Positions 2,243 to 62,539 of a stretch of DNA of 64,000 nucleotides are shown one piece after another. The notes below the pieces were generated by a model. That model did not search any database. It was given only the letters and a program-made list of their open reading frames with translations, and had not been told where the DNA came from. Position numbers and translations under genes: made by a program. Position 1 is the first letter of the stretch. Each line of letters starts with the position of its first letter. Origin of the DNA: an uncultured Methanosarcinales archaeon (GTDB lineage Archaea; Nanobdellota; Nanobdellia; Woesearchaeales; JACJVV01); NCBI GenBank assembly GCA_964581515.1, contig CAZOOV010000001.1:180823-244822 (forward strand). The letters run 5' to 3'.

Positions 2243-3181
2243 TTATGGCTTATACTTAGCTAATTCAGCCTTTAAAATCCTTAAGTTCTCTTCACCAGGA
2301 CATTCCTTTGCTGCAAAATCCCTATGCCCATAAACATTATCGTCAGAAATCTTATATCTCCTTTGAAGAGAAGTTACAAGAGCAATTACATTTGTTTTCT
2401 GCGCATCTGTAAGTGTTACAACACTACCGTCAGGATATCCTGTTTTTGGGTCGGTTGGCAATGTACCTACCATCTCTATACTTAGAGTACCTTCATTATG
2501 TCCTTTGCAGTGATACGCAATATTTGTTTCTGGAACTATCTGAATAATAGCTCCATCAATAGTACTATTCTTACCTTCACCAGTGCCATTCTCAACTATA
2601 TAATGTGCACTAAGAGATTTTTTTGCTGGAAGTTCATGATTGTGAAATGAGTTTTCTGCACTCTTGCCTTCTGACTGCGTTATATGAAGGAAGATCTGAT
2701 CAATGCCTACATTTCTGCCACCTACATGATAACCGGAAGTAAGGTTTGTTCTAGTAGGTCCAGCATAAGCTGGTGCATCTAATAATCCTGATTCTTTTGG
2801 TAAAGTCGCTTCAAGACCGATAGGTTCTGTATCATCTATCATATGTTCATCTGCAAATGCCATCAGCATCTCAACACGTAAATCCATATCGTGATTAGCT
2901 GGTGTTTTAGGTGTTTGATATGATCCAATAGAAGGTTCTTGACTTGCATCTGGTTTTGATTTAAACAGATTAGCTATACTATGTTTGCTTTGAAGATTTC
3001 CTGCAACACCAAGACCAATAACTCCTGCAAGCGCTAATAATGGAACTGCATAAGTCTTCATGTATGAGGCTACATTACCTGGCATTCTCTTAAGAGCATC
3101 AAAATAAGTGATGTCTCTAGCCATTATAGCATCAAAATCAGATGTATCAAATTCTTCTGGATTAGATTGTTTTTTAGTCAT
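2243..3181 (-). CDS. Membrane-anchored N-acetylmuramoyl-L-alanine amidase (Amidase_2/AmpD-like)
   Basis: IFLHIT, SAHYIV, IIQIVPETNIAYHC, SIEMVG, VYGHRD and KECPG give the His/His/Cys zinc ligands; hydrophobic segment AVPLLALAGVIGLGVAG near the N-terminus. Confidence 0.9.
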   Translation of the reverse strand: MTKKQSNPEEFDTSDFDAIMARDITYFDALKRMPGNVASYMKTYAVPLLALAGVIGLGVAGNLQSKHSIANLFKSKPDASQEPSIGSYQTPKTPANHDMDLRVEMLMAFADEHMIDDTEPIGLEATLPKESGLLDAPAYAGPTRTNLTSGYHVGGRNVGIDQIFLHITQSEGKSAENSFHNHELPAKKSLSAHYIVENGTGEGKNSTIDGAIIQIVPETNIAYHCKGHNEGTLSIEMVGTLPTDPKTGYPDGSVVTLTDAQKTNVIALVTSLQRRYKISDDNVYGHRDFAAKECPGEENLRILKAELAKYKP

Positions 3182-33117: not shown

Positions 33118-33579
33118 ATGCAAGAATCACTTTTTTATGCTTCACAAGAAATGAAAAGAGCTGAACATCTATTATATGTCAGTCTAAAATATACAAGAAC
33201 GGGAGATGTAATAAAGAGCTTAGTATCCAGACTAATAGCATGTTTTGATTTTGTTATAGACGGAATGTTAGAAATAGAAGAAGAAAAAGGTAGTATTGTC
33301 GAAGTACCAAACAGCCCTTTTGCCAAAGTAACAGTATTAAAGAGAATATATAAAGATAATGAAGAGATGTGTGTATATCTTGATTACTATCTCCTACTGA
33401 GAAAAATATCAAGAAGCAATTCAGAAGCATCTCATGAGTTCAGGAGAAATCTTGTATTAAGAGTTAAACTCGATGATAAAGAGGTTGAAATTACAATCGA
33501 TATTTCTGGAGATTATTACCATAAAACTCATGATTTCTTAAAATTTATAAAGGACATCCATATATTAGATGAAAAATGA
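33118..33579 (+). CDS. Hypothetical helical protein
   Basis: 153 aa; AEHLLYV and EFRR; ATGA-coupled to minD. Confidence 0.75.
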   Translation: MQESLFYASQEMKRAEHLLYVSLKYTRTGDVIKSLVSRLIACFDFVIDGMLEIEEEKGSIVEVPNSPFAKVTVLKRIYKDNEEMCVYLDYYLLLRKISRSNSEASHEFRRNLVLRVKLDDKEVEITIDISGDYYHKTHDFLKFIKDIHILDEK

Positions 33580-34391
33580 GAAGTGTGGTTATCGCATCAG
33601 GCAAAGGTGGTGTAGGAAAAACTACTTTAGCCCTTAACCTTGCACTAGCACTTACAAGATATGGTAGACAAACTATACTTGTTGATGGGAATTTTGATTT
33701 TCCCCATGTTGGACTTATGCTTGGTAAATCAAATTTTGAAGAGACAATTATTTCTGCAATTGAAGATAGGAAGAATATAAAAGAAGTAGTGTATAAACAC
33801 CAGTCAGGACTCAAAATCGTACCTGGAAATATATCTTTAGAACATTTACACAAAAAAGATATCAATAAATTCAATAAATTAGTTAATCAATTAGATGAAT
33901 ATGCTGAAATTGTCATTGTTGATTCTGGGCATGGATTTAACAAAGAGAATATAGAAGTAATTGGTAATTGTACTGATATAATTCTTGTAACTACTCCTGA
34001 TTTTGTATCTGTTACAGAGACTCTAAAACTTTTAAAGATTATTAAACAAAATCCTAATTCTAAAATATTAGGTGTGATTGTAAATAAGGATTCAGGAAAA
34101 GATTATGATATGAAAGTAGAAAATATACAAACGTTACTTGGAGAGAAAGTAATTGGGGTTGTACCTGAACATAAGAGCGTCAAACAATCATTGAAACTTA
34201 AACATCCACTTATATATAGCCATCCAAGTTCTGCTGCAACAGAAGCGATTGAAAAAATTGCATGTAATCTAATAAACAAACCATATCAAAAAAAAGAAGT
34301 TGTGAAAAAGACAAAACTTGTAAATATTATGGATAAAGTAGGACTAAAGAAATGGTATGAAACACTTCTAGATGAGGAGGATGAAGATTAA
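33576..34391 (+). CDS. minD: MinD/ParA family ATPase
   Basis: SGKGGVGKTT deviant Walker A, LVDGN, IVPG, VIVDSG, LVTTPD, GVIVNK. Confidence 0.88.
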   Translation: MRSVVIASGKGGVGKTTLALNLALALTRYGRQTILVDGNFDFPHVGLMLGKSNFEETIISAIEDRKNIKEVVYKHQSGLKIVPGNISLEHLHKKDINKFNKLVNQLDEYAEIVIVDSGHGFNKENIEVIGNCTDIILVTTPDFVSVTETLKLLKIIKQNPNSKILGVIVNKDSGKDYDMKVENIQTLLGEKVIGVVPEHKSVKQSLKLKHPLIYSHPSSAATEAIEKIACNLINKPYQKKEVVKKTKLVNIMDKVGLKKWYETLLDEEDED

Positions 34392-37586: not shown

Positions 37587-37985
37587 TTATTTCTTTAGAA
37601 GACTTCTACATCCATTATATGTTGTTTTTAGAATATTGTAAGGAATTTCAAGTGCATATGTTCCCATTAAAGTAGGTTCTTTTTCTCTTAAGTCAGGAAA
37701 CCTTGCAAAACCATCAACCATCATGGCTGCAAATGTAGTTCTAGCTTCAGGAGATTGAGAATATATCATTCCAATAAAACCAGCAGTAAGTTCTAAAGCA
37801 GAACTGAAATAAACTGATTCAGCTGCTTCATAATTAGGTATTATTTTTTCTAATTTCTTTTGTTCAGGTAAAAGAGAGACCACTGTATCAATCACTAAAG
37901 CGCATACTCCTGCTGTTAAACCAAATGTTATGTAAGAAGCGTCTAAAAATTTATCAGCGATACTTGTTTTTGTTACTGCATCCAT
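37587..37985 (-). CDS. Hypothetical membrane protein
   Basis: Start moved to MDAVTK because the track start lies inside the repeat array. Confidence 0.6.
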   Translation of the reverse strand: MDAVTKTSIADKFLDASYITFGLTAGVCALVIDTVVSLLPEQKKLEKIIPNYEAAESVYFSSALELTAGFIGMIYSQSPEARTTFAAMMVDGFARFPDLREKEPTLMGTYALEIPYNILKTTYNGCRSLLKK

Positions 37986-38089
37986 AACAGATATAATTTT
38001 AATTGATGTTTTAAAGATTTGTTTCTTTGAGAATATAAGAAAAAATGATTTAGATGTAAGAATTATGTAGAAAAAAAGTGTGAGGGAGG

Positions 38090-38240
38090 ACAATCTCACT
38101 AACGTTCTTTGCATAGTACTAATGTACTATACAATCTCACTAACGTTCCAGGCCTAGTACTATGTACTAGACAATCTCACTAACGTTCTTTGCATAGTAC
38201 TAATGTACTATACAATCTCACTAACGTTCCAAGCCCTCCC
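38090..38240. repeat. Tandem hairpin repeat array downstream of tRNA-Leu
   Basis: ACAATCTCACTAACGTTC x4 at 38090, 38131, 38171, 38212 with alternating 23/22-nt hairpin spacers. Confidence 0.95.
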
Positions 38241-38288
38241 TTTAACGTTTAATTGTGTTTTAGATGTAAATCAGGTAAAAAGATAAAG

Positions 38289-38422
38289 TGTGAGGGAGGG
38301 GATTCGAACCCCCGAACCCACTAAAGGACAGGATGCCTCAAACGCTGAAAGTCATTGTGTTTTCACACTCTTAACTCAATTTCTTGAGTCCTGCGCGTTT
38401 GACCAGACTTCGCTACCCTCAC
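38289..38422 (-). tRNA. tRNA-Leu(CAA) with 48-nt intron at 37/38 (38335-38382)
   Basis: Acceptor GTGAGGG/CCCTCAC, A73, CAGGA-CTCAAG^A-TCCTG, long variable arm, GGTTCGAATCC; BHB central helix CTCA/TGAG. Confidence 0.95.
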
Positions 38423-38468
38423 ATAAATTATAAGAATGATAAATATCAATCTCTTTTTAAAGTTTTAG

Positions 38469-38867
38469 TTACTGCTCATGCTTGTGTAAGAAGAAGGCTA
38501 TACCAAAGATTATGGTAACAGCAATAAGTACTGAGAAAAGTTCAATATTAAAATTATTATTTGGATGATTTAGTGGACTTTCAATATCTGGACGTCTTAA
38601 ATCAAGTTCCATATCATTCATAGGTATTGTAACAGAATAAATGCTTTCGCAATTATTTTCAGATTCACATACGCCCTGTCCGTTCTTCTCACAACAAATT
38701 TGATTTATACAATCTGAATCAGCTGTGCAAGATATATAGCAGTCTCCATCGATACATGTCATTGTATCTTTAATGACGTTTCCGGTTAATGAAGATCCTA
38801 AAAAGAATAAAAGAGCAGATAATGATATTATAAAAGTTACAGTGAATATTGTGTCATTTTTATCCAT
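38469..38867 (-). CDS. Cys-rich membrane-anchored surface protein
   Basis: N-terminal TM followed by LTGNVI, eight-Cys domain, C-terminal TM. Confidence 0.75.
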   Translation of the reverse strand: MDKNDTIFTVTFIISLSALLFFLGSSLTGNVIKDTMTCIDGDCYISCTADSDCINQICCEKNGQGVCESENNCESIYSVTIPMNDMELDLRRPDIESPLNHPNNNFNIELFSVLIAVTIIFGIAFFLHKHEQ

Positions 38868-39006
38868 ATGAATGAATTTTTAATATAAGCATTAATAAAT
38901 ATTTTGATTTGAATAGCAAGGGGAAAAATAACAGAGAGAGATAATAGAGAAAGATAACAGAAAAAAAGAAAGAAAAAAATAAAATAAAAAGAAAAAACTA
39001 ATCAGA

Positions 39007-41183: not shown

Positions 41184-41444
41184 TTTATCAGTCCTCCATT
41201 TATGGATCTATTTTTTTATTTTTGTTGCAGAAGTATACTGTTGAAATTAAGACAAGTTATAATTTACATTATCATTAACTTCTCAGCGCATAGCAAACAG
41301 ACCAACTTGTGACTCAAACATGTTTGCTATATCTGCAACTTCTAAAATCAGATTGGCATTAGCCTAAACTGAAGTATCACCTCTTCAGCCCTCGGTCTTT
41401 TCCGCCTACCTTAAGAAACCCAAGCCTTACTAGATGAAATATCC

Positions 41445-41466
41445 AAAGTGTTTAAAAACCTTTCGG
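41445..41466. promoter_or_regulatory. Candidate bidirectional TATA region
   Basis: + strand AAAGTGTTTAAAAA; - strand GAAAGGTTTTTAAA. Confidence 0.4.
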
Positions 41467-41485
41467 TGAGTACCACTCTGAAGAA

Positions 41486-48352: not shown

Positions 48353-48739
48353 ATGACAACCCAAAGAAATACCACGCAAAAAATAAAAATTTTGGAATTT
48401 TTAAGGAGTGTAAAGACACATCCTTCAGCTGAAGATGTATATAAGGCTGTAAAGGAGGATTTGCCCACTATAAGTCTGGGGACGGTTTATAGGAATCTAA
48501 ATCTTCTTGCAGAACAAGGAGAAATATTAAAACTGGAACTTGGGGGAGAATTTCGTTTTGATGGAGATATATGCCATCATGTGCATTACATATGTCAAGA
48601 ATGTGGAATAATAGTTGATGAATCCAATGGCCCACTATCAAAAATAGTGATGGACAAAATAAAATCAAAATCATTTAAACCTAAGTGTGTGAATATTTTA
48701 GTTAAAGGTTATTGCAAAGAATGCAAAGGAGGAAAATAA
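48353..48739 (+). CDS. Fur/PerR family transcriptional repressor
   Basis: THPSAEDVY, ISLGTVYRNL, HHVHYICQECG, GYCKEC. Confidence 0.93.
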   Translation: MTTQRNTTQKIKILEFLRSVKTHPSAEDVYKAVKEDLPTISLGTVYRNLNLLAEQGEILKLELGGEFRFDGDICHHVHYICQECGIIVDESNGPLSKIVMDKIKSKSFKPKCVNILVKGYCKECKGGK

Positions 48740-48740
48740 G

Positions 48741-49286
48741 ATGAGTACAACAGAAGAAAATCTCAAAGCAGCTTTCGCTGGAGAAAGCCAAGCAAGAAAC
48801 AAATATACATATTTTGCTAAGGTGGCAAGAAAAGAAGGTTATCATTACATTGCAAGATTATTTGAAGAAACTGCTGAAAATGAAAGACAGCATGCAAAAG
48901 ATGAATTCAAGCTTCTAGGGGGTATAGGAGATACAAAAGCAAACCTAAAAGCTGCTATGGAAGGAGAAAACTATGAAGTTACAGAAATGTATCCTACTTT
49001 TGCCAAAGAAGCTGAAGAAGAAGGCAATAAAGAAGCAGCCTTACTATTTACACAAATAGCTAAAGCTGAAGAAGCACATGAGAAAAGATACAAAAAATTA
49101 CTTCAAATGGTAGAAGACGGCACAGTATTCAAGAAAAAAAAACCAATTAAATGGAAGTGTGGAAAATGTGGGAGAATTGTTGAAGGTACTGAAGCACCTG
49201 AAAAATGCCCAACATGTAAGCATCCACAATCTTATTTTGAACCTGAATGCTTATGTTTTGAAGAAGATTGTGAAATTTGCAATTAA
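48741..49286 (+). CDS. rbr: Rubrerythrin
   Basis: AFAGESQARNKY, ENERQHA, GENYE, WKCGKCG...CPTCKHP. Confidence 0.95.
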   Translation: MSTTEENLKAAFAGESQARNKYTYFAKVARKEGYHYIARLFEETAENERQHAKDEFKLLGGIGDTKANLKAAMEGENYEVTEMYPTFAKEAEEEGNKEAALLFTQIAKAEEAHEKRYKKLLQMVEDGTVFKKKKPIKWKCGKCGRIVEGTEAPEKCPTCKHPQSYFEPECLCFEEDCEICN

Positions 49287-49306
49287 ATTAACCGAGGGGA
49301 ATTTTA

Positions 49307-49768
49307 ATGAATGAAAAATTGAAGATAATACTTGACAACGCAATTAAAGAAGAACAATATTTTCATGAGTTTTACAAAGCATTAGCAGAAAAAGCAAATG
49401 AACCTGCAGTGAAAAAAGAGCTCCTTAAATTATCTGAACAAGAACTGATTCATAAAGAAAAACTAAGGAGCCTAAACTTTGAAAGAATAGGTGATAAGAT
49501 AATTGCTGATGCAATAGATGAATTTGATATAGAGGAAGAAATTGCATTAAATCCTATTGAAGAATTTAGAAATATCAAAGAGATGTTGGAATTTGCAATA
49601 AAACAAGAAGTATTAGCAAAAGTGACATATCTTAAGATGGCAAAGACGATAAATGATGATGAAGCCATGAATATATTTGAAATGTTGGCTGAAGAAGAGA
49701 AGAAACATGAATTATTATTGACAGGCAAACTTGCTTTACTTGAACAGCAAGGAGCTGTAGATTGGTAA
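49307..49768 (+). CDS. Ferritin-like (rubrerythrin-type diiron) protein
   Basis: Duplicated AIKxE...ExxH motifs. Confidence 0.85.
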   Translation: MNEKLKIILDNAIKEEQYFHEFYKALAEKANEPAVKKELLKLSEQELIHKEKLRSLNFERIGDKIIADAIDEFDIEEEIALNPIEEFRNIKEMLEFAIKQEVLAKVTYLKMAKTINDDEAMNIFEMLAEEEKKHELLLTGKLALLEQQGAVDW

Positions 49769-49783
49769 AAGGAGGGAATAAGA

Positions 49784-50311
49784 ATGGCTATTTCAAAAAA
49801 GATGCAAGATGCAATAAATTTACAAATAAATGCAGAGATGTACTCAGCTTATCTTTATCTAGCAATGTCTGCAAACTTTGAAAACAGTAACTTAACAGGA
49901 TTTGCAAACTGGATGAAAGTACAAGCACAAGAAGAGATGGTACATGCAATGAAATTTTATACCCATTTAGTAGAAAGAGGAGGAAAGGTAATACTTGGTG
50001 CAATAGACAAACCACCAAAAGAATGGAAAAGCCCATTAGCAGTATTTGAAGAGGCATATAAGCATGAACAAAAAGTAACAACACTAATCCATAATCTAGT
50101 TGACCTATCAACAAAGGAAAAAGATCACGCTGCAAATAGTATGTTACAGTGGTTTGTAGATGAACAAGTAGAAGAAGAAGCTTCTGCAGATGCAGTTGTA
50201 CAGAAATTAAAGATTGCAAAAGATGCACCAGGAGCTATCTTCATGATAGACCAAGAGTTAGGAACAAGAGTATTTGTTCCACAGCCAGCAGATGGTGGTG
50301 GTGCTCAATAA
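49784..50311 (+). CDS. ftn: Non-heme ferritin
   Basis: QINAEMYSAYLYLAM, EEMVHAMKF, LQWFVDEQVEEE. Confidence 0.93.
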   Translation: MAISKKMQDAINLQINAEMYSAYLYLAMSANFENSNLTGFANWMKVQAQEEMVHAMKFYTHLVERGGKVILGAIDKPPKEWKSPLAVFEEAYKHEQKVTTLIHNLVDLSTKEKDHAANSMLQWFVDEQVEEEASADAVVQKLKIAKDAPGAIFMIDQELGTRVFVPQPADGGGAQ

Positions 50312-50394
50312 ATCAAGAGAGGTGAAGGGAGATGGCTAAATACGAGAAATTGAAAATTTCTGGACTTAGTCATTTTTAATAAAAGGTGATAAAA

Positions 50395-50562
50395 ATGACT
50401 AAGTTCAAATGTATACCATGTGATTATGTTTATGATGAAGAAACAGGGGACCCTGATAATGGAGTAGAAGCAGGAACTAAATTTGCTGATATCCCTGATA
50501 CATGGGTCTGTCCAGTATGTGGAGTAGGAAAAGACCAATTCGAAGAAATAAAAGAAGAATAA
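50395..50562 (+). CDS. Rubredoxin
   Basis: Not in the track; [55 protein letters not shown]; GGTGA RBS. Confidence 0.95.
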
Positions 50563-50622
50563 TTAACAACTAGTAAAAAAATAATAGATTGAGATTATAA
50601 TCAATTATTGGAGGTATTAAAA

Positions 50623-51006
50623 ATGGCAGAGGAAAATGGAATCTACAAATGTGAAGTATGTGGAAATATAGTATCTGTTATTGAAGCACATGATGGAACA
50701 TTAGTATGTTGTGGACAAGAGATGAAAATCTTAGAAGAAAAAGCAATTGAACAAGAAGGTAATGAAAAACATGTACCTATCATCGAAACAAGTGAAGGTA
50801 AAGTCAAAGTAAGTGTTGGATCAGTACCACACCCTATGGAAGAAGATCACTGGATAGAACTAATTCAACTCCTGAAAGATGGAAAAGTAATAGCAGAAAA
50901 GAAACTATCTCCAGGGGACACACCAGTAGCAGAGTTCTGTGTCTCAAATACAGAAGGAATTAGTGCTAGAGAAATATGCAATAAACATGGGCTCTGGAAA
51001 AGTTAA
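50623..51006 (+). CDS. dfx: Desulfoferrodoxin (2Fe superoxide reductase)
   Basis: YKCEVCGN, LVCCG, EKHVP, HPMEEDHWI, CNKHGLW; start after GGAGGT RBS. Confidence 0.94.
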   Translation: MAEENGIYKCEVCGNIVSVIEAHDGTLVCCGQEMKILEEKAIEQEGNEKHVPIIETSEGKVKVSVGSVPHPMEEDHWIELIQLLKDGKVIAEKKLSPGDTPVAEFCVSNTEGISAREICNKHGLWKS

Positions 51007-51024
51007 TCTTTTCCTTTTTAATCT

Positions 51025-51660
51025 ATGACAAATAAAAAATTAATAAGCCAAATAAAGGCTTTAAAAAACAGTAAAGTAAAGGACCAAATAGATAAAAAGT
51101 TAAAGGAATTCAAAAGTTTCAAGAGAAAAAGTACAGATGAGTGGTTCTGTGAGTTATGCTTTTGCATACTTACTGCAAATTCTAAAGCTATGACTGCCCT
51201 TTCAATCCAGGAAGAACTTGGTAGCCAAGGTTTTATCTGTAATTCTCAAAAAGAGATTTGCAATTGCATTAAAAGAAATAAACATAGATTCCATAATAAT
51301 AAGTCCAAGTATATTATAGAAGCAAGGAAGCATAAGGATGAACTTAAGAAAAAGATAAATTCTATGAGTGAGAAAGATGGTCGAGAATGGATTGTTAAAA
51401 ATATCAAGGGTCTTGGTTACAAAGAATCATCACACTTTCTCAGAAATGTCGGATATGATAATCTTGCAATACTTGATAGACATATATTGAACCTCATGGT
51501 TGATACAAATATGATAAAAGAGAAGCCAAAAACATTAACAAAGAATATTTATGAAAAAATAGAGAAGAAATTTATAGAATTAGCTAAAAAAATGAAGATG
51601 AGTGCTGCTGAACTTGATTTTTACATGTGGTATATTAAAACAAATAAAGTGTTAAAGTGA
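51025..51660 (+). CDS. ogg: 8-oxoguanine N-glycosylase/DNA lyase (OGG2 type)
   Basis: ELCFCILTAN, HRFHN, IKGLGYKESSHFLRNVG, AILDRHI, ELDFYMWY. Confidence 0.93.
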   Translation: MTNKKLISQIKALKNSKVKDQIDKKLKEFKSFKRKSTDEWFCELCFCILTANSKAMTALSIQEELGSQGFICNSQKEICNCIKRNKHRFHNNKSKYIIEARKHKDELKKKINSMSEKDGREWIVKNIKGLGYKESSHFLRNVGYDNLAILDRHILNLMVDTNMIKEKPKTLTKNIYEKIEKKFIELAKKMKMSAAELDFYMWYIKTNKVLK

Positions 51661-52553: not shown

Positions 52554-53264
52554 ATGACAAAAACCATATTCCATAAAAAAAAGGAAGATTGCTATAAAGA
52601 GGCTGTAAGAATAATAATTGAATCTATAGAGAAAACTCTTGCTGAGAAGGAGTATGCTGTTTTGGCAATTCCAGGTGGGAGAAATGTTGCTGCAATATTT
52701 AATATCCTAACTAAGGAGGATATCTTGTGGGATAAGATACATATATTTATGGTCGATGAGAGATTAGTAGGGATTGATGATGAACAAAGTAATTTCAAGC
52801 TTGCGAATGATAGTTTTATCAAGAATTTAATTAAAACAGGAAAATTACAGGAAGAAAATATACATCCATTTATTGTGAATGCTAATGAAAAAGATAAAGG
52901 CATTAAGAAATATGAAGAAGAATTAAAGAAAGTTGGTGGAAAGTATGATATCGTTCTGTTGAGTGCTGGAGAAGATGGTCATGTTGGTGCGCTTTATCCA
53001 AAACATCATTCGGTCAATGATGAGAGTGATTTTTTCATTACAATAAATGATTCACCCAAAGCCCCCGCAGAGAGGATGTCTTCATCAAAGAATCTTTTGC
53101 TTAAATCTAGTATTGGAATAATAATATTTATAGGTAATGGAAAGAAAGAAGCATATGAAAAATATATTGACAAAGGATTAGAAATCGAAGATTGTCCTGC
53201 TAAGATTGTTGATTCATTAAATGAGTCATATGTACTAACTGATATCATAAAAGAAGAGGATTAA
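52554..53264 (+). CDS. pgl: 6-phosphogluconolactonase
   Basis: PGGRN, IFMVDERLV, SNFKL, GEDGHVGALYP, PKAPAERMS. Confidence 0.88.
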   Translation: MTKTIFHKKKEDCYKEAVRIIIESIEKTLAEKEYAVLAIPGGRNVAAIFNILTKEDILWDKIHIFMVDERLVGIDDEQSNFKLANDSFIKNLIKTGKLQEENIHPFIVNANEKDKGIKKYEEELKKVGGKYDIVLLSAGEDGHVGALYPKHHSVNDESDFFITINDSPKAPAERMSSSKNLLLKSSIGIIIFIGNGKKEAYEKYIDKGLEIEDCPAKIVDSLNESYVLTDIIKEED

Positions 53265-53276
53265 AAAGAGGTAAAG

Positions 53277-54639
53277 ATGGAAAGCACCATAGTAATATTA
53301 GGAGTAACAGGTGATCTTGCTAGAAAGAAGATTATACCAGCAATATACAATCTTATACTACATAAAAAACTAAAGAATTTTGCAATAATTGGTGTTGCGA
53401 GAAGCAAGCATACAAAAACTGAACTAATAAATAAATCAAAAGAATATATTAAGGGTTTTGATAAAAATGTTTGGAATAAAATAAAAGAAAGATTCACTTA
53501 TTTAAGAGCAGATTTTAATGAAGGCGAAAAAGTATGCAAGATTGGAAAAAATATAAGAGAAATTGAAAAAAAGTATAATCTTAAAGAAGACAGAATATTT
53601 TACTTAGCTACACTTCCTGATTTATTCATTCCTATAGCGTCTACTCTAAATAAATGTGGACTTACAAACAAGAAAGATAAGATAGTATTTGAAAAACCAT
53701 TTGGAAATAATCTTAAGTCTGCAGTGGAGATTAATAAAGAAATTAGAAAATGGTACAGTGAAGAATCTGGGTAAGGAAATTGTACAGAATATATCCATTG
53801 CAAGATTTACAAATACTGTACTTGAACCGTTATGGAATAACAAATTTATTGATCATGTACAAATAATATTAACAGAAGATTTTGGAATTGAAGATAGAGG
53901 AGGATTCTATGACAAATACGGTGCACTTAAAGATGTTGTACAAAATCATATGCTACAACTTTTAAGCCTTACAGCAATGGAAGCACCAACTAGCCTTAAT
54001 GAAGAGAATATAAGGGATCAAAAAATTAAAGTGCTTAGAGCTGTCAGAAATCCAGAAAAGAATAACATCATACTTGGACAATATGAAGGATATAAAAAAG
54101 AGAAAGGCGTAAAACCAAATTCAAAAACATCTACATTTGTTGCAAGTAAACTTTTTATCAACAATAAAAGATGGAAAAATGTTCCATTCTATTTAATCAC
54201 TGGAAAAAATATGAAAAATAAAACCGCCGGGATATATATTGAATTTAAACAAGCAAAATGTAGGCTGTTTGATAAAGGATGTAAATTCACACCAAATCAT
54301 CTTGTGATACAGATACAGCCAAATCAAGGAATATATATGGGACTCAATGCAAAATCGCCTGGTAATGGTGAGATTGTTCCTGTCAATATGAATTTCTCAC
54401 ATGAGCGAAAATTTGGACTCAATTCACCTGAAGCATATGAGAATCTCATAGAAGATGTAATCAAAGGCAATCAAGCAATGTTTATCAGGACAGATGAAGT
54501 TGAAGAACAATGGAGAATAATTGATAAAATTGACATAGAGAAACTTAAGGTAAATAAATACAAGAAAAAAGATTATCCAACAGAAGCTAAGAAGTTTATT
54601 GAGAAAGATTGTAGATCATGGCACCTGGAGGTGAAGTAG
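53277..54639 (+). pseudogene. zwf: Glucose-6-phosphate dehydrogenase, split by a frameshifting deletion at ~53766
   Basis: Frame 1 has GVTGDLA and EKPFG and ends at TAA 53774; frame 2 resumes LGKE and has DVVQNHMLQ and YENL; RIDHY is missing. Confidence 0.9.
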
Positions 54640-55536
54640 ATGAAGATAGGATTTATCGGACTTGGAAGAATGGGTTATAATATGGTCTTAAATTTGCTTG
54701 ATCATAAGAATAAAGTTGTTGTTTACAATAGATCTCCTGAGAAAACAAAAAAGATTGTTAAGAAAGGCGCAATAGGAGCGTTTAGTGTTAATGAACTTAT
54801 TGAAAAACTGCCATCACCGAAGATTATATGGTTAATGGTAGTAGCTGGAAAACCAGTAGATGATATGATTAAGAAATTATTGCCACACCTTAAGAAAGGA
54901 GATATCATAATCGATGGAGGAAATTCATACTATAAAGATTCTATAAGAAGATACAATATGCTCAGGAAAAAAGGTATTAAGTTCTTAGATACAGGAACTT
55001 CAGGTGGAATGGAAGGTGCAAGACAAGGTGCATGCATGATGATTGGTGGAGACAAAACAGTCTTCAAAAAAGTAGAGAAATTGTTTAGAGATATGTGTGT
55101 AAAAGAAGGTTATGGATATATGGGGAAAACTGGTGCTGGACATTTTGTTAAAGCAGTGCATAATGGGATTGAATATGGCATGATGGGAGCAATTGCTGAA
55201 GGTATGGCAAATATCAAAAGTCAGAGCAAAAAGTTTGGCACTGATCTTAATGAGGCAATTAAAGTATATGCACATGGAAGCATAATAGAGAGCAGGCTTG
55301 TATCGTGGCTTGAAAAATCATATTACACAAAAGGATACCTCGATACTATGGCAGAAATTGTCCCAAAAGGAGAAACAGAAGAAGAAATGAAGAAAATAAA
55401 GAAATTACATCCTATGCCTGTGTTGAATGAAGCAATAAAGATGAGGGTCGGGACCAGGAAGAAGCCAAAATATGAAGGTAAGCTACTTGCTGCAATGAGG
55501 AATCAATTCGGTGGACATAAAGTGGTAAAAAAATAA
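54640..55536 (+). CDS. gnd: Short-type decarboxylating 6-phosphogluconate dehydrogenase
   Basis: GFIGLGRMG, IDGGNSYY, GTSGG, GHFVKAVHNGIEYG, AAMRNQFGGH. Confidence 0.93.
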   Translation: MKIGFIGLGRMGYNMVLNLLDHKNKVVVYNRSPEKTKKIVKKGAIGAFSVNELIEKLPSPKIIWLMVVAGKPVDDMIKKLLPHLKKGDIIIDGGNSYYKDSIRRYNMLRKKGIKFLDTGTSGGMEGARQGACMMIGGDKTVFKKVEKLFRDMCVKEGYGYMGKTGAGHFVKAVHNGIEYGMMGAIAEGMANIKSQSKKFGTDLNEAIKVYAHGSIIESRLVSWLEKSYYTKGYLDTMAEIVPKGETEEEMKKIKKLHPMPVLNEAIKMRVGTRKKPKYEGKLLAAMRNQFGGHKVVKK

Positions 55537-61099: not shown

Positions 61100-62467
61100 T
61101 TAAGCTCCACATCCTGCTGCTGCACTAGGTGCTGCACCTGCTGGTGCTGCTTCCCAACCAAAACCTGGTGTTGGTGCGCCTACATCAATTTCTTCTTCAC
61201 ATTCCTCAGGTTGATCTGAGAATGCAAAACAGATTGCACTAAGTAGACTTTTTGCATCACGTCCAGCTGATGGTTCTGCTCCATTGATTCTTAATGAAGG
61301 TGAACCTCTTACACCATATTTTTGGTTATCTGCATCATGTAAGTTGAATGGTGGGAACTGACCTTTCCATTTTGACTTGTCATCATAATCAGCTGAAATG
61401 CCAAACTCTGCATCAGCATCACTTACACATGAAGCAATTGCATCAGTATCTAGTTCTAATTCTTCCATACATGCTTTTCCTTCAGCAGCTGAACCTGCAG
61501 TTGTACCTAAGAAACATTCAAGATAATCAAGTAATTTATCTGGATATTCCTTATCTATACAATACTGATTCATCTGTTCATCGATCTCTTTTTGTTCATG
61601 CATAGCATAATTAACAAACTTCAACTGGAAATCTATCTTGTCTCCAAGAAGCTGTGCAACTGGAAGGATACCTTTTTCCATCTGAGTTCCATAAGGACAA
61701 TGTGACATTACAAAAAGCTCAACAATTGGCTTATCTGCTTTTTCAACACATTCCCATACACCTGAACAATCAGGGGATGCGCAGTCAACTAGACCATCGC
61801 CTGTATCATCTTTTCCATTACCACAAACTTCTTTTGTAGGGTCATATTCTGAACCAACCCTTAAAGAAGTATATTCACCCGCTGGTTCAACATATTGTGC
61901 AACTTGACTATATGATGAATCTGCTTGTGCTTCTTTATCAAACAAGAATGCTGGTAGAGTTTTTACATTTGCTGATTTGAATAATGCTTCTCCTTCTGCA
62001 TCGCTGTAATCTACTTCTACTATCTCAACTTGAGGAAATACATTCTTCAATTGTGAGATTACTTGCTGAGCTCTAGCGTCACAGTCTGAGCACCTTGCAT
62101 CATTTAATAATGTGATCTTTATGTCACCACCTGTAGCAGTCGGTGCATTTGTTGGTGGTGTAGTTGTTGTGCCACCATTATCTGGTGTTTGCTTTTCACA
62201 TGAAGACATATTTATTGCCAAAGACAATATGAATAATGCTCCAAAAACAAATGTGAGAATTTTCCACCAATCTAATTTATTTTCTTTTTTAACAGATTTA
62301 TGCTTATGAGCGTGATGTTCTACATGCTCTTTTTTAGCACTTTCATGTTTACTTTCTTTTTTTTCGTGATTTACTTTCTTTTCATGATCTGTTTTTTTAT
62401 CATGTTCTTCTTTTTTGTCATGATTTTCTTTTTTATCATGATCTACTTTCTTATCATCATCATGCAT
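61100..62467 (-). CDS. Membrane-anchored double thioredoxin-fold (DsbA/GILT-like) protein with His/Lys-rich N-tail
   Basis: H(D/E)KK repeats, TM, Thr/Pro linker, CSDC, VCGNGKDDTGDGLVDC, FVMSHCPYG, GVRGSP. Confidence 0.78.
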   Translation of the reverse strand: MHDDDKKVDHDKKENHDKKEEHDKKTDHEKKVNHEKKESKHESAKKEHVEHHAHKHKSVKKENKLDWWKILTFVFGALFILSLAINMSSCEKQTPDNGGTTTTPPTNAPTATGGDIKITLLNDARCSDCDARAQQVISQLKNVFPQVEIVEVDYSDAEGEALFKSANVKTLPAFLFDKEAQADSSYSQVAQYVEPAGEYTSLRVGSEYDPTKEVCGNGKDDTGDGLVDCASPDCSGVWECVEKADKPIVELFVMSHCPYGTQMEKGILPVAQLLGDKIDFQLKFVNYAMHEQKEIDEQMNQYCIDKEYPDKLLDYLECFLGTTAGSAAEGKACMEELELDTDAIASCVSDADAEFGISADYDDKSKWKGQFPPFNLHDADNQKYGVRGSPSLRINGAEPSAGRDAKSLLSAICFAFSDQPEECEEEIDVGAPTPGFGWEAAPAGAAPSAAAGCGA

Positions 62468-62539
62468 TTTTGAACTACCCCCTAATTTTGTATAGCCACG
62501 ATAATAAGGCTTTGATTTATAAAAGTTATGTATGTAAGA

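Follow-up and report, generated by a model that had tools for sequence, protein, structure and literature searches.

The present analysis concerns a block of hairpin-forming tandem repeats that lies behind a tRNA-Leu gene in a metagenomic scaffold of approximately 613 kb. The window, that is, the whole stretch of DNA that was analyzed, covers 64 kb of this scaffold, and all coordinates are given relative to it. The array begins 48 nt past the end of a tRNA-Leu(CAA) gene, with which it shares the strand. The block, a structure-forming tandem repeat of recent amplification, lies in a duplicated copy of the spacer that follows this gene.

The G+C content of the window is 33%. Its proteins include aIF5B, Elp3, Nop5, PCNA, an RFC-like ATPase, RNase J, class I tRNA synthetases and a type IV pilus/archaellum-type ATPase. 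The best homologs of the Band_7 protein encoded next to the locus were at most 50% identical to it and were labeled Pacearchaeota or Nanoarchaeia by their sources. Accordingly, the host is an archaeon represented by a metagenome-assembled genome (MAG), probably of the DPANN group and without a close sequenced relative.

The tRNA-Leu gene and its hairpin array

The positions of all features of the locus are shown in Table 1. The tRNA gene, the only one found in the 64 kb, was scored at 44.3 bits by the Rfam model RF00005 (gathering score, 29); its cloverleaf matches the covariance model, and the alignment leaves 51 nt unaligned in the anticodon loop, most of which belong to an intron. With introns allowed (-i), ARAGORN identified the gene as tRNA-Leu(CAA) with an intron of 48 nt. 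In its default bacterial mode, the same program reported no tRNA in the window and missed the intron-bearing gene entirely. The bulge-helix-bulge (BHB) motif of the intron has a 4-bp central helix, six outer pairs and three inner pairs. The promoter scores given here come from a position weight matrix (PWM) for TATA boxes that was trained on approximately 30 upstream regions of the window itself.

Table 1. Features of the tRNA-Leu locus, in the order of transcription of the tRNA
Feature	Position in window	Strand	Support or remark
TATA-like box TTTAAAAAG, likely tRNA promoter, 31-39 nt 5' of the tRNA	38453-38461	-	PWM score 10.4
tRNA-Leu(CAA) gene	38289-38422	-	Rfam RF00005, ARAGORN with introns, BHB scan
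tRNA intron, 48 nt, canonical archaeal BHB, position 37/38	38335-38382	-	BHB scan
Proximal 15-nt direct repeat CCTCCCTCACACTTT, comprising the final 11 nt of the tRNA and 4 nt of trailer	38285-38299	-	
Proximal trailer, with T5 (38277-38281) and conserved block TGATTTACATCTAAAACA (38256-38273)	38242-38284	-	
Weak TATA-like site TCTAAAACA, then CAATTAAAC, in the proximal trailer	38256-38264	-	PWM score 6.2
Closing stem 5' arm AGGGAGGGC, then linker UUG and the first 18-mer	38233-38241	-	Occupies the slot of a hairpin 3' arm
Tandem array of four exact 18-mers (GAACGTTAGTGAGATTGT on the - strand): 38090-38107, 38131-38148, 38171-38188, 38212-38229	38090-38229	-	
Hairpins A, B and A	38113-38130, 38154-38170, 38194-38211	-	Inside the array
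Distal 15-nt direct repeat	38075-38089	-	Its CCTCCCT plus GT at 38090-38091 forms the closing stem 3' arm
Distal trailer, with T7 (38071-38077) right after the tRNA-end copy, conserved block TTACATCTAAATCA (38046-38059) and T6 (38040-38045)	38040-38077	-	
Strong TATA box TTTAAAACA of the downstream open reading frame (ORF), 30 nt before its ATG	38007-38015	-	PWM score 9.5
Downstream ORF, 132 aa	37587-37985	-	Neighbor of the array

The array is built around an 18-mer (ACAATCTCACTAACGTTC on the + strand, starting at 38090, 38131, 38171 and 38212) that is present in exactly four identical copies, and no further copy with up to three mismatches could be found in the window (0.01 expected). The intervening spacers (22-23 nt) follow the order A-B-A and each of them carries a 7-bp palindrome: on the + strand, spacer A reads TTTGC-ATAGTAC-TAAT-GTACTAT and spacer B reads CAGGC-CTAGTAC-TAT-GTACTAG. 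The motif TAGTAC-N3-4-GTACTA had three matches in the window, all of them in the array, where none was expected. The steps from repeat to repeat are 41, 40 and 41 bp, so that the true period of the array is 81 bp, that is, two modules of 41 and 40 bp. Tandem Repeats Finder (TRF) gave the array a score of 238, the maximum for the window, and detected no comparable non-low-complexity tandem repeat in the rest of the 64 kb.

Comparison of the A and B modules revealed no changes among the 18 positions of the 18-mer, whereas three of the five linker positions differ and one loop has an indel. In the stems only the terminal pair is altered, on both sides (A-T to C-G), which is a compensatory change. 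An 18-mer that stays unchanged next to a compensated stem pair points to constraint on the 18-mer sequence and on the pairing. Of the 66 nt compared between the two copies that set the 81-bp period, one base differs (98% identity); the 81-bp amplification is therefore recent, whereas the split between A and B predates it and looks constrained.

On the tRNA strand, the block reads AGGGAGG-GCUUG-R-AUAGUAC-AUUA-GUACUAU-GCAAA-R-CUAGUAC-AUA-GUACUAG-GCCUG-R-AUAGUAC-AUUA-GUACUAU-GCAAA-R-CCUCCCU-CACACUUUUUUU, where R stands for the 18-mer as RNA (GAACGUUAGUGAGAUUGU). It thus consists of four modules of the form [7-nt arm]-GCNNN-R-[7-nt arm], in which neighboring arms pair with one another and so form the hairpins A, B and A. 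The pairing of arms is cyclic, as the two outermost arms are complementary to each other, AGGGAGG pairing with the CCUCCCU of the copied tRNA 3' end. In every module, the GU that ends R precedes each 5' arm and a GC follows each 3' arm, and every stem gains a G-C and a U·G pair from these flanking dinucleotides. The closing stem obeys the same register: AGGGAGG-GC pairs with GU-CCUCCCU over 9 bp (38241-38233 with 38091-38083), as also predicted by RNAfold, and its core is formed by GGGAGG at 38084-38089 and CCTCCC at 38235-38240. We estimate the chance of a complementary 7-mer at this one fixed position to be approximately 1e-5 at this base composition. In the predicted fold, the block closes into a single four-helix junction that presents four identical 18-nt segments and ends with ...CACA and U7.

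The folding energy of the whole block as minus-strand RNA was -60 kcal/mol (z = -5.5), compared with -42.7 kcal/mol for the opposite strand. The two types of hairpin reached -12.9 and -10.6 kcal/mol on the tRNA strand and were weaker on the opposite strand (-8.2 and -7.3 kcal/mol) because the U·G pairs become C·A mismatches there. On the tRNA strand a T5 run follows the tRNA and a T7 run follows the array, whereas no run of five or more T crosses the array on the opposite strand. Based on the G·U pairs and the T runs, the tRNA strand is favored for a putative array RNA. Taken together, the compensatory stem change, the strand-specific G·U extensions and the register of the closing stem argue for selection on the tRNA strand, both for base pairing and for the sequence of the 18-mer.

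Flanking duplication, copy number and searches for relatives

The array is bracketed by a direct repeat that includes the tRNA 3' end. The 15-mer AAAGTGTGAGGGAGG (+ strand) is found at 38075-38089 and 38285-38299, and the 11-mer TTTAGATGTAA at 38049 and 38259, both pairs being offset by 210 bp. The 11-mer alone is not rare in the window when one mismatch is allowed, but an exact pair at an equal offset of 210 bp is beyond chance. The insert between the two 15-bp copies is 195 bp long and non-coding. The duplication extends imperfectly over approximately 48 bp, consisting of the exact 15-mer and about 35 nt that align with gaps (~80% identity including the 15-mer); in the same way, the distal trailer is ~80% alignable, with gaps, to the proximal one. 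The flanking duplication appears to be older than the array.

The TCTAAAACA-CAATTAAAC sequence before the array resembles the strong promoter of the next ORF, TTTAAAACATCAATTAAAA (shuffle p = 0.0005; 0.3% of windows across the 64 kb reach an equal score). The TATA scores were 10.4 before the tRNA, 9.5 before the next ORF and, with the refined matrix, 6.2 before the array. No significant similarity could be observed between the tRNA promoter region and the other two spacers. Considering the duplicated tRNA end, the two trailers and the promoter-like stretch, the locus looks like a partly duplicated spacer reaching from tRNA end to promoter, with the array at the junction; an allele without the array would read ...CACACTTT joined directly to TTTTCTACATAA.

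The same tRNA, trailer and array are present in an independent assembly of the same population, made from another sample (contig L006, positions 588-953, corresponding to the window from 38299 onward). This contig has at least seven 18-mers in strict A-B alternation and ends inside the array. The window, with its four repeats in A-B-A order, therefore gives either a minimum count or a single allele. Contigs L003, L005 and L025, all three short and from other samples, stop 10-16 nt past the tRNA end, at 38273-38279, before the array is reached. The periodicity of the array does not explain these stops, and a strain-level difference may start there. It should be noted that L003 has a single-nucleotide polymorphism (SNP) at 38334, where the base next to the intron on its 3' side (tRNA position 38) is U instead of A, and that L025 has SNPs at 38494 and 38504, inside an upstream 132-aa ORF (38469-38867); these SNPs indicate the presence of more than one strain. 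The genes flanking the array occur together on six contigs of 20 kb to 0.6 Mb. Thus, the array is real, and its copy number is probably unstable, unless the assemblers resolved the loop differently.

Searches for related arrays gave only isolated chance hits. The 18-mer had three single matches in the genome collection, in unrelated bacteria, and nine single matches with unrelated flanks in the metagenome collection. In viral contigs, neither the 18-mer nor the tRNA end and a 44-bp flank module could be found, and blastn of the region against plasmids and phages yielded no meaningful match. Contigs of relatives share just the Band_7 gene pair with the window and have no tRNA-Leu at that place. 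An Rfam scan of the array found nothing, even at E = 10.

Most of these features had been described in an earlier note made from the letters of the window, and the additional analyses bear out its observations in full and its interpretation in part. The four 18-nt repeats, their A-B-A spacers and the 7-bp hairpins with a compensatory end pair lie where it had placed them and are not a product of chance; the copy of the tRNA 3' end and the second motif are offset by exactly 210 bp; and the identity of the tRNA-Leu gene is borne out by its RF00005 score and the ARAGORN assignment. The stem-closed fold that it proposed for the tRNA strand is supported by the energy, the z-score and the stronger hairpins on that strand, and the closing GGGAGG/CCTCCC pairing turned out to be longer (9 bp). 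Two comparisons that it had recommended were less productive: the search for the 18-mer in genomes and metagenomes returned matches, none of them in a related array, and the contigs of relatives have the Band_7 pair in common with the window, but neither tRNA-Leu at that place nor the array. The points that go beyond this first reading are the archaeal, intron-bearing nature of the tRNA, the doubt about copy number, the imperfect extension of the duplication to ~48 bp and the placement of the closing stem in the register of the hairpins.

A candidate RNA behind the tRNA and rival explanations

On these grounds, we tentatively suggest that the array gives rise to a structured RNA, produced when the tRNA-Leu transcript is extended beyond its 3' end. 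The array would be transcribed on the tRNA strand, mainly as part of the tRNA-Leu primary transcript, by read-through at the weak T5 run and with a stop at the T7 run, and cleavage by RNase Z at the tRNA 3' end would free the array RNA. The invariant 18-mers might be its working parts, serving as multivalent binding sites for a protein or another nucleic acid, and the hairpins might act as spacers and scaffold. As for its origin, an older duplication of ~48 bp, comprising the tRNA 3' end and trailer, would have been followed by a recent slippage amplification of the 81-bp unit, the copy number of which would still be varying. As a mechanism, it would be most economical if this RNA were produced together with the tRNA and released when the tRNA 3' end is processed.

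Such an arrangement has a precedent in DPANN archaea. In Nanoarchaeum equitans, a member of this group, dicistronic tRNA-sRNA (small RNA) precursors have been described, in which the 5' end of the sRNA is made by RNase Z (PMC3491384). The locus studied here resembles these genes, and the plant tRNA-snoRNA (small nucleolar RNA) genes, in that a candidate gene for a structured RNA immediately follows a tRNA in the same orientation and itself lacks a strong promoter, and its host lineage is DPANN-like as well. However, the N. equitans sRNAs are C/D box guides, whereas the present array has neither C (RUGAUGA) nor D (CUGA) boxes on either strand (by inspection), is a tandem repeat that ends in a copy of the tRNA 3' end, and has an expression that is predicted only.

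A second comparison is offered by the tyrT locus of Escherichia coli, in which tRNA-Tyr is followed by distal repeat units of 178 bp, each carrying the tRNA 3' end. In both cases a tRNA precedes same-strand repeated DNA that contains a copy of its own 3' end. Every tyrT unit, however, carries the tRNA end, whereas here one extra copy is found, 210 bp away (1.2 super-units of 210 bp), and the internal 81-bp units are hairpin modules without homology to the tRNA body. In addition, no small ORF of the tpr type is present, the array being full of stops in all frames (by inspection). Of the known systems, small-RNA genes linked to tRNAs and tRNA-distal repeats with a copy of the tRNA end come nearest to this feature.

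Several observations weigh against a tRNA-linked RNA. The array is known here from the DNA of one locus in one population. The only promoter-like sequence before it is the weak TATA-like site at 38256-38264 (score 6.2), of which about two per kb per strand occur by chance, and a start directed by this site would fall close to 38234, within the 5' arm of the closing stem. Most transcription may already be halted by the T5 run behind the tRNA. No other genome in the collections searched carries the array, covariation being limited to the two hairpin variants and the closing stem; the closest relatives (at most 50% protein identity) have no synteny at the array site; and no Rfam family matches the array. 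Finally, the near-perfect identity of the 81-bp units equally fits a very recent neutral amplification, and a DNA-level binding array would likewise be compatible with the palindromes and with a period of 40-41 bp, or about four turns of DNA. Because the evidence comes from DNA and a single locus, a strong promoter is lacking and the T5 run lies in the path of transcription, we hold this reading at well below an even chance.

A still more specific form of the reading appears improbable as a whole. It supposes a novel tRNA-linked RNA of DPANN archaea that forms a closed four-helix junction, uses the tRNA 3'-terminal sequence as a strand of its closing stem, is released by tRNA processing and displays at least four 18-nt segments as a multivalent sponge or scaffold, with its valency set by repeat slippage. 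DPANN archaea have tiny genomes and unusual RNA processing, and next to nothing is known of their non-coding RNAs beyond Nanoarchaeum. If expressed, the array would be a modular RNA in which the number of binding sites could be changed by slippage and in which a tRNA end is reused for architecture or processing.

Alternatively, an element could have inserted site-specifically at the 3' end of tRNA-Leu, the block being what is left of it, or a minimal and non-autonomous version of it, without a present cellular role. In that case attL and attR would be represented by the 15-bp copies, the element would have brought in the proximal copy together with its trailer, and the array would be a leftover, for example recombinase arm sites or origin iterons. 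Integrative elements are known to duplicate attachment (att) sites at tRNA 3' ends, and integrase-less, cis-mobilizable remnants are among them. As in these cases, an exact direct repeat, made up of the final 11 nt of the tRNA and 4 nt of trailer, brackets foreign-looking DNA and leaves the tRNA gene intact, with imperfect homology for about 35 nt further, as in att sites with a captured tRNA end. Moreover, the distal copy has the cleaner terminator, T7 right after the tRNA end, as would be expected of the original gene end, and the neighboring ORFs on both sides have no homologs or family matches. Nevertheless, we consider this explanation doubtful in either form. No integrase, transposase, Cas1 or other mobile-element gene was detected among the 58 window ORFs, and neither integrase nor transposase in the 10 kb beyond one window end; merely 195 bp separate the repeats; and no virus or plasmid in the collections searched carries the tRNA end or the array. 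The interior is highly ordered and not decayed, its units being 98-100% identical, and a closing stem in register would be unexpected of a random remnant. The earlier note had raised such a scar and had found no integrase or cas gene in the window. The latter statement was upheld, as none of the 58 ORFs of at least 90 aa has a Pfam match to an integrase, transposase or Cas family; for the scar, the direct repeat with the tRNA end remains as the one piece of positive evidence.

The block might also be a neutral, fast-evolving minisatellite, in which hairpin-prone DNA of the tRNA trailer was amplified by polymerase slippage without any function. This would account well for the near-perfect units with their two 66-nt copies, for the four versus at least seven repeats in different assemblies and for the fact that short contigs from this population break off no more than 16 nt from the tRNA end. 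Similar repeats are documented in the archaeal Borg elements, where perfect head-to-tail intergenic units, some with predicted hairpins, are recent and copy-variable within populations and have been suggested to act as regulatory RNA (PMC9879509). The present array is likewise perfect, head-to-tail, recent, copy-variable and predicted to form hairpins. However, Borg repeats are A-rich, pervade the genome and have partial units at their flanks, whereas the array occupies one locus of a small archaeal chromosome, has a duplicated tRNA end at its flanks and shows an older two-module substructure with signs of constraint. A minisatellite seems unlikely to us: it leaves unexplained why ~48 bp of unrelated sequence are duplicated at the flanks, why the outermost arms are complementary in register and why the older A/B divergence spared 18 of 18 nt and the stem pairing, and the window has no comparable non-low-complexity repeat elsewhere. 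If either the insertion scar or the minisatellite applies, the interest of the locus would be mainly practical, as it marks a spot where short-read assemblies break and copy number is not to be trusted.

Alternating hairpins are also known from bacterial interspersed mosaic elements (BIMEs), mosaic arrays of alternating repetitive extragenic palindromic (REP) hairpins that are dispersed in many copies. Two alternating hairpin types, fixed linkers and the amplification of a two-hairpin unit are common to both, whereas the hairpin motif and the 18-mer are found here at a single locus in 64 kb and the collections gave only single chance matches.

If the array acted as DNA, its four phased 18-bp sites, 40-41 bp apart, could bind a protein and form the regulatory region of the downstream ORF, a set of iterons or a centromere-like site. 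Consistent with this possibility, the 18-mer is invariant while the A and B linkers differ, the period of 41/40/41 bp corresponds to about four helical turns and the array ends ~75 bp upstream of the TATA box of the ORF. The layout recalls sopC of the F plasmid, which is made of 43-bp direct repeats, each with a 7-bp inverted repeat (direct repeats of about 41-43 bp with one 7-bp inverted repeat apiece are common to both), and a gene for a ParA/MinD-type ATPase is located at 33576-34391. Unlike sopC, which adjoins sopAB, the array has no such partner genes beside it: 3.7 kb and five genes separate it from the ParA-like gene, and family scans of the window identified no ParB-like partner. In addition, a compensatory stem change and G·U extensions on one strand would be expected of base pairing rather than of recognition by a protein dimer, and no counterpart was found elsewhere in the window or in the genome and metagenome collections. 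We therefore regard a DNA-level array as quite improbable.

The last two explanations can be treated briefly. A module akin to type III toxin-antitoxin systems (ToxIN, CptIN, TenpIN; tandem repeats of ~35-45 nt), with the ~41-nt repeats as RNA antitoxin, then a terminator and the 132-aa downstream ORF as toxin gene, would match the layout (3.4 x 41 nt, a T7 run and a same-strand ORF ~90 nt downstream). It is very unlikely, however, as this ORF has its own strong promoter between array and ATG and neither homologs nor matches to Pfam, PADLOC or NCBIfam, including the ToxN/AbiQ, CptN and TenpN families, and its low-confidence model (mean predicted local distance difference test score, pLDDT, 43) is all-helical, unlike the mixed alpha/beta fold of ToxN-type endoribonucleases. 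The weakest explanation is an artefact of assembly, in which a repeat was collapsed or looped or unrelated pieces were joined into a chimera, and which the earlier note had named as a possible refutation: short-read metagenome assemblies are unable to size a repeat with an 81-bp period, repeat counts are unequal between assemblies and several contigs end nearby, but with the identical tRNA-trailer-array sequence of L006 and the flanking genes linked on six contigs the doubt is limited to copy number and does not touch the existence of the array, so that an artefact is scarcely credible.

Rejected candidates and other features of the window

Several other identities were considered and rejected. 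The array is not a CRISPR array, as the repeat has 18 nt (compared with ~23-50), the spacers are palindromic and recur as A-B-A, and no Cas family occurs among the 58 ORFs. The 15-bp length of the direct repeat fits the 14-15-bp target duplication of a casposon insertion next to a tRNA 3' end, but the ends of the insert are not inverted repeats and no Cas1 is present. An integron attC site is superficially suggested by the AAC|GTT within AACGTT, but by inspection the sequences on either side depart from RYYYAAC/GTTRRRY. A C/D box sRNA was discarded since the array has neither box and matches no Rfam C/D family at E <= 10. A degenerate second tRNA copy was rejected because the array unit resembles neither the tRNA body nor the intron to a significant degree and has no special complementarity to them. 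A non-canonical 210-nt tRNA intron between the two tRNA-end copies was also rejected: the BHB scan found no fitting motif and no candidate splice site for an exon 1 ending at 38285-38300, within the repeated 15-mer, and the nearest candidate, at 38303, has no outer pair and one inner pair. The sites GTAC, CTAG and ACGT are not avoided in this genome, which speaks against restriction-site avoidance or a decoy. Finally, a replication origin was dismissed because no Orc1/Cdc6 gene is present in the window and the turn of the GC skew at ~41 kb coincides with a switch of gene orientation.

The tRNA and array are flanked by two ORFs of 132 aa on the minus strand (37587-37985 and 38469-38867). The downstream one has hydrophobic segments, and a protein search revealed no homologs of it; its single-sequence AlphaFold model, all-helical with hydrophobic helices as far as readable, is too low in confidence to be used. 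The upstream one is Cys-rich with hydrophobic segments at both ends and has no match in Pfam, PADLOC or NCBIfam. Between it and the Band_7 gene lies a purine-only (A/G) low-complexity tract of ~80 nt (38920-39001). A gene-free spacer of 300 bp with a G+C content above that of its surroundings (41184-41485) separates the divergent Band_7 and DUF6384 genes; it contains a sub-threshold, C/D-box-like Rfam match at 41223-41286 (minus strand, E = 0.81), and its folding is no better than that of shuffles.

Other parts of the window also contain unusual genes. An oxidative-stress cluster at 48353-51660 (plus strand) comprises a Fur-family regulator, two rubrerythrins, a ferritin/Dps-like protein, desulfoferrodoxin and 8-oxoguanine glycosylase. 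A 6PGL-G6PD-6PGD cluster (52554-55536) provides an oxidative pentose-phosphate set, which is unusual for an archaeon. Within it, glucose-6-phosphate dehydrogenase is split into N-domain and C-domain ORFs (53277-53774 and 53689-54639, plus strand) that overlap by 86 nt in different frames, which could be a frameshift, a pseudogene or a sequence error. An N-acetylmuramoyl-L-alanine amidase (Amidase_2; 2243-3181, minus strand), a peptidoglycan-cleaving enzyme, is encoded in this archaeal genome and would fit a DPANN lifestyle that involves bacteria. Nested tandem repeats of 18, 36 and 54 nt are found at 62354-62471, where they occupy the 5' end of an ORF of 455 aa (61100-62467, minus strand) that has a thioredoxin-like domain, and would encode a repetitive N-terminal segment.

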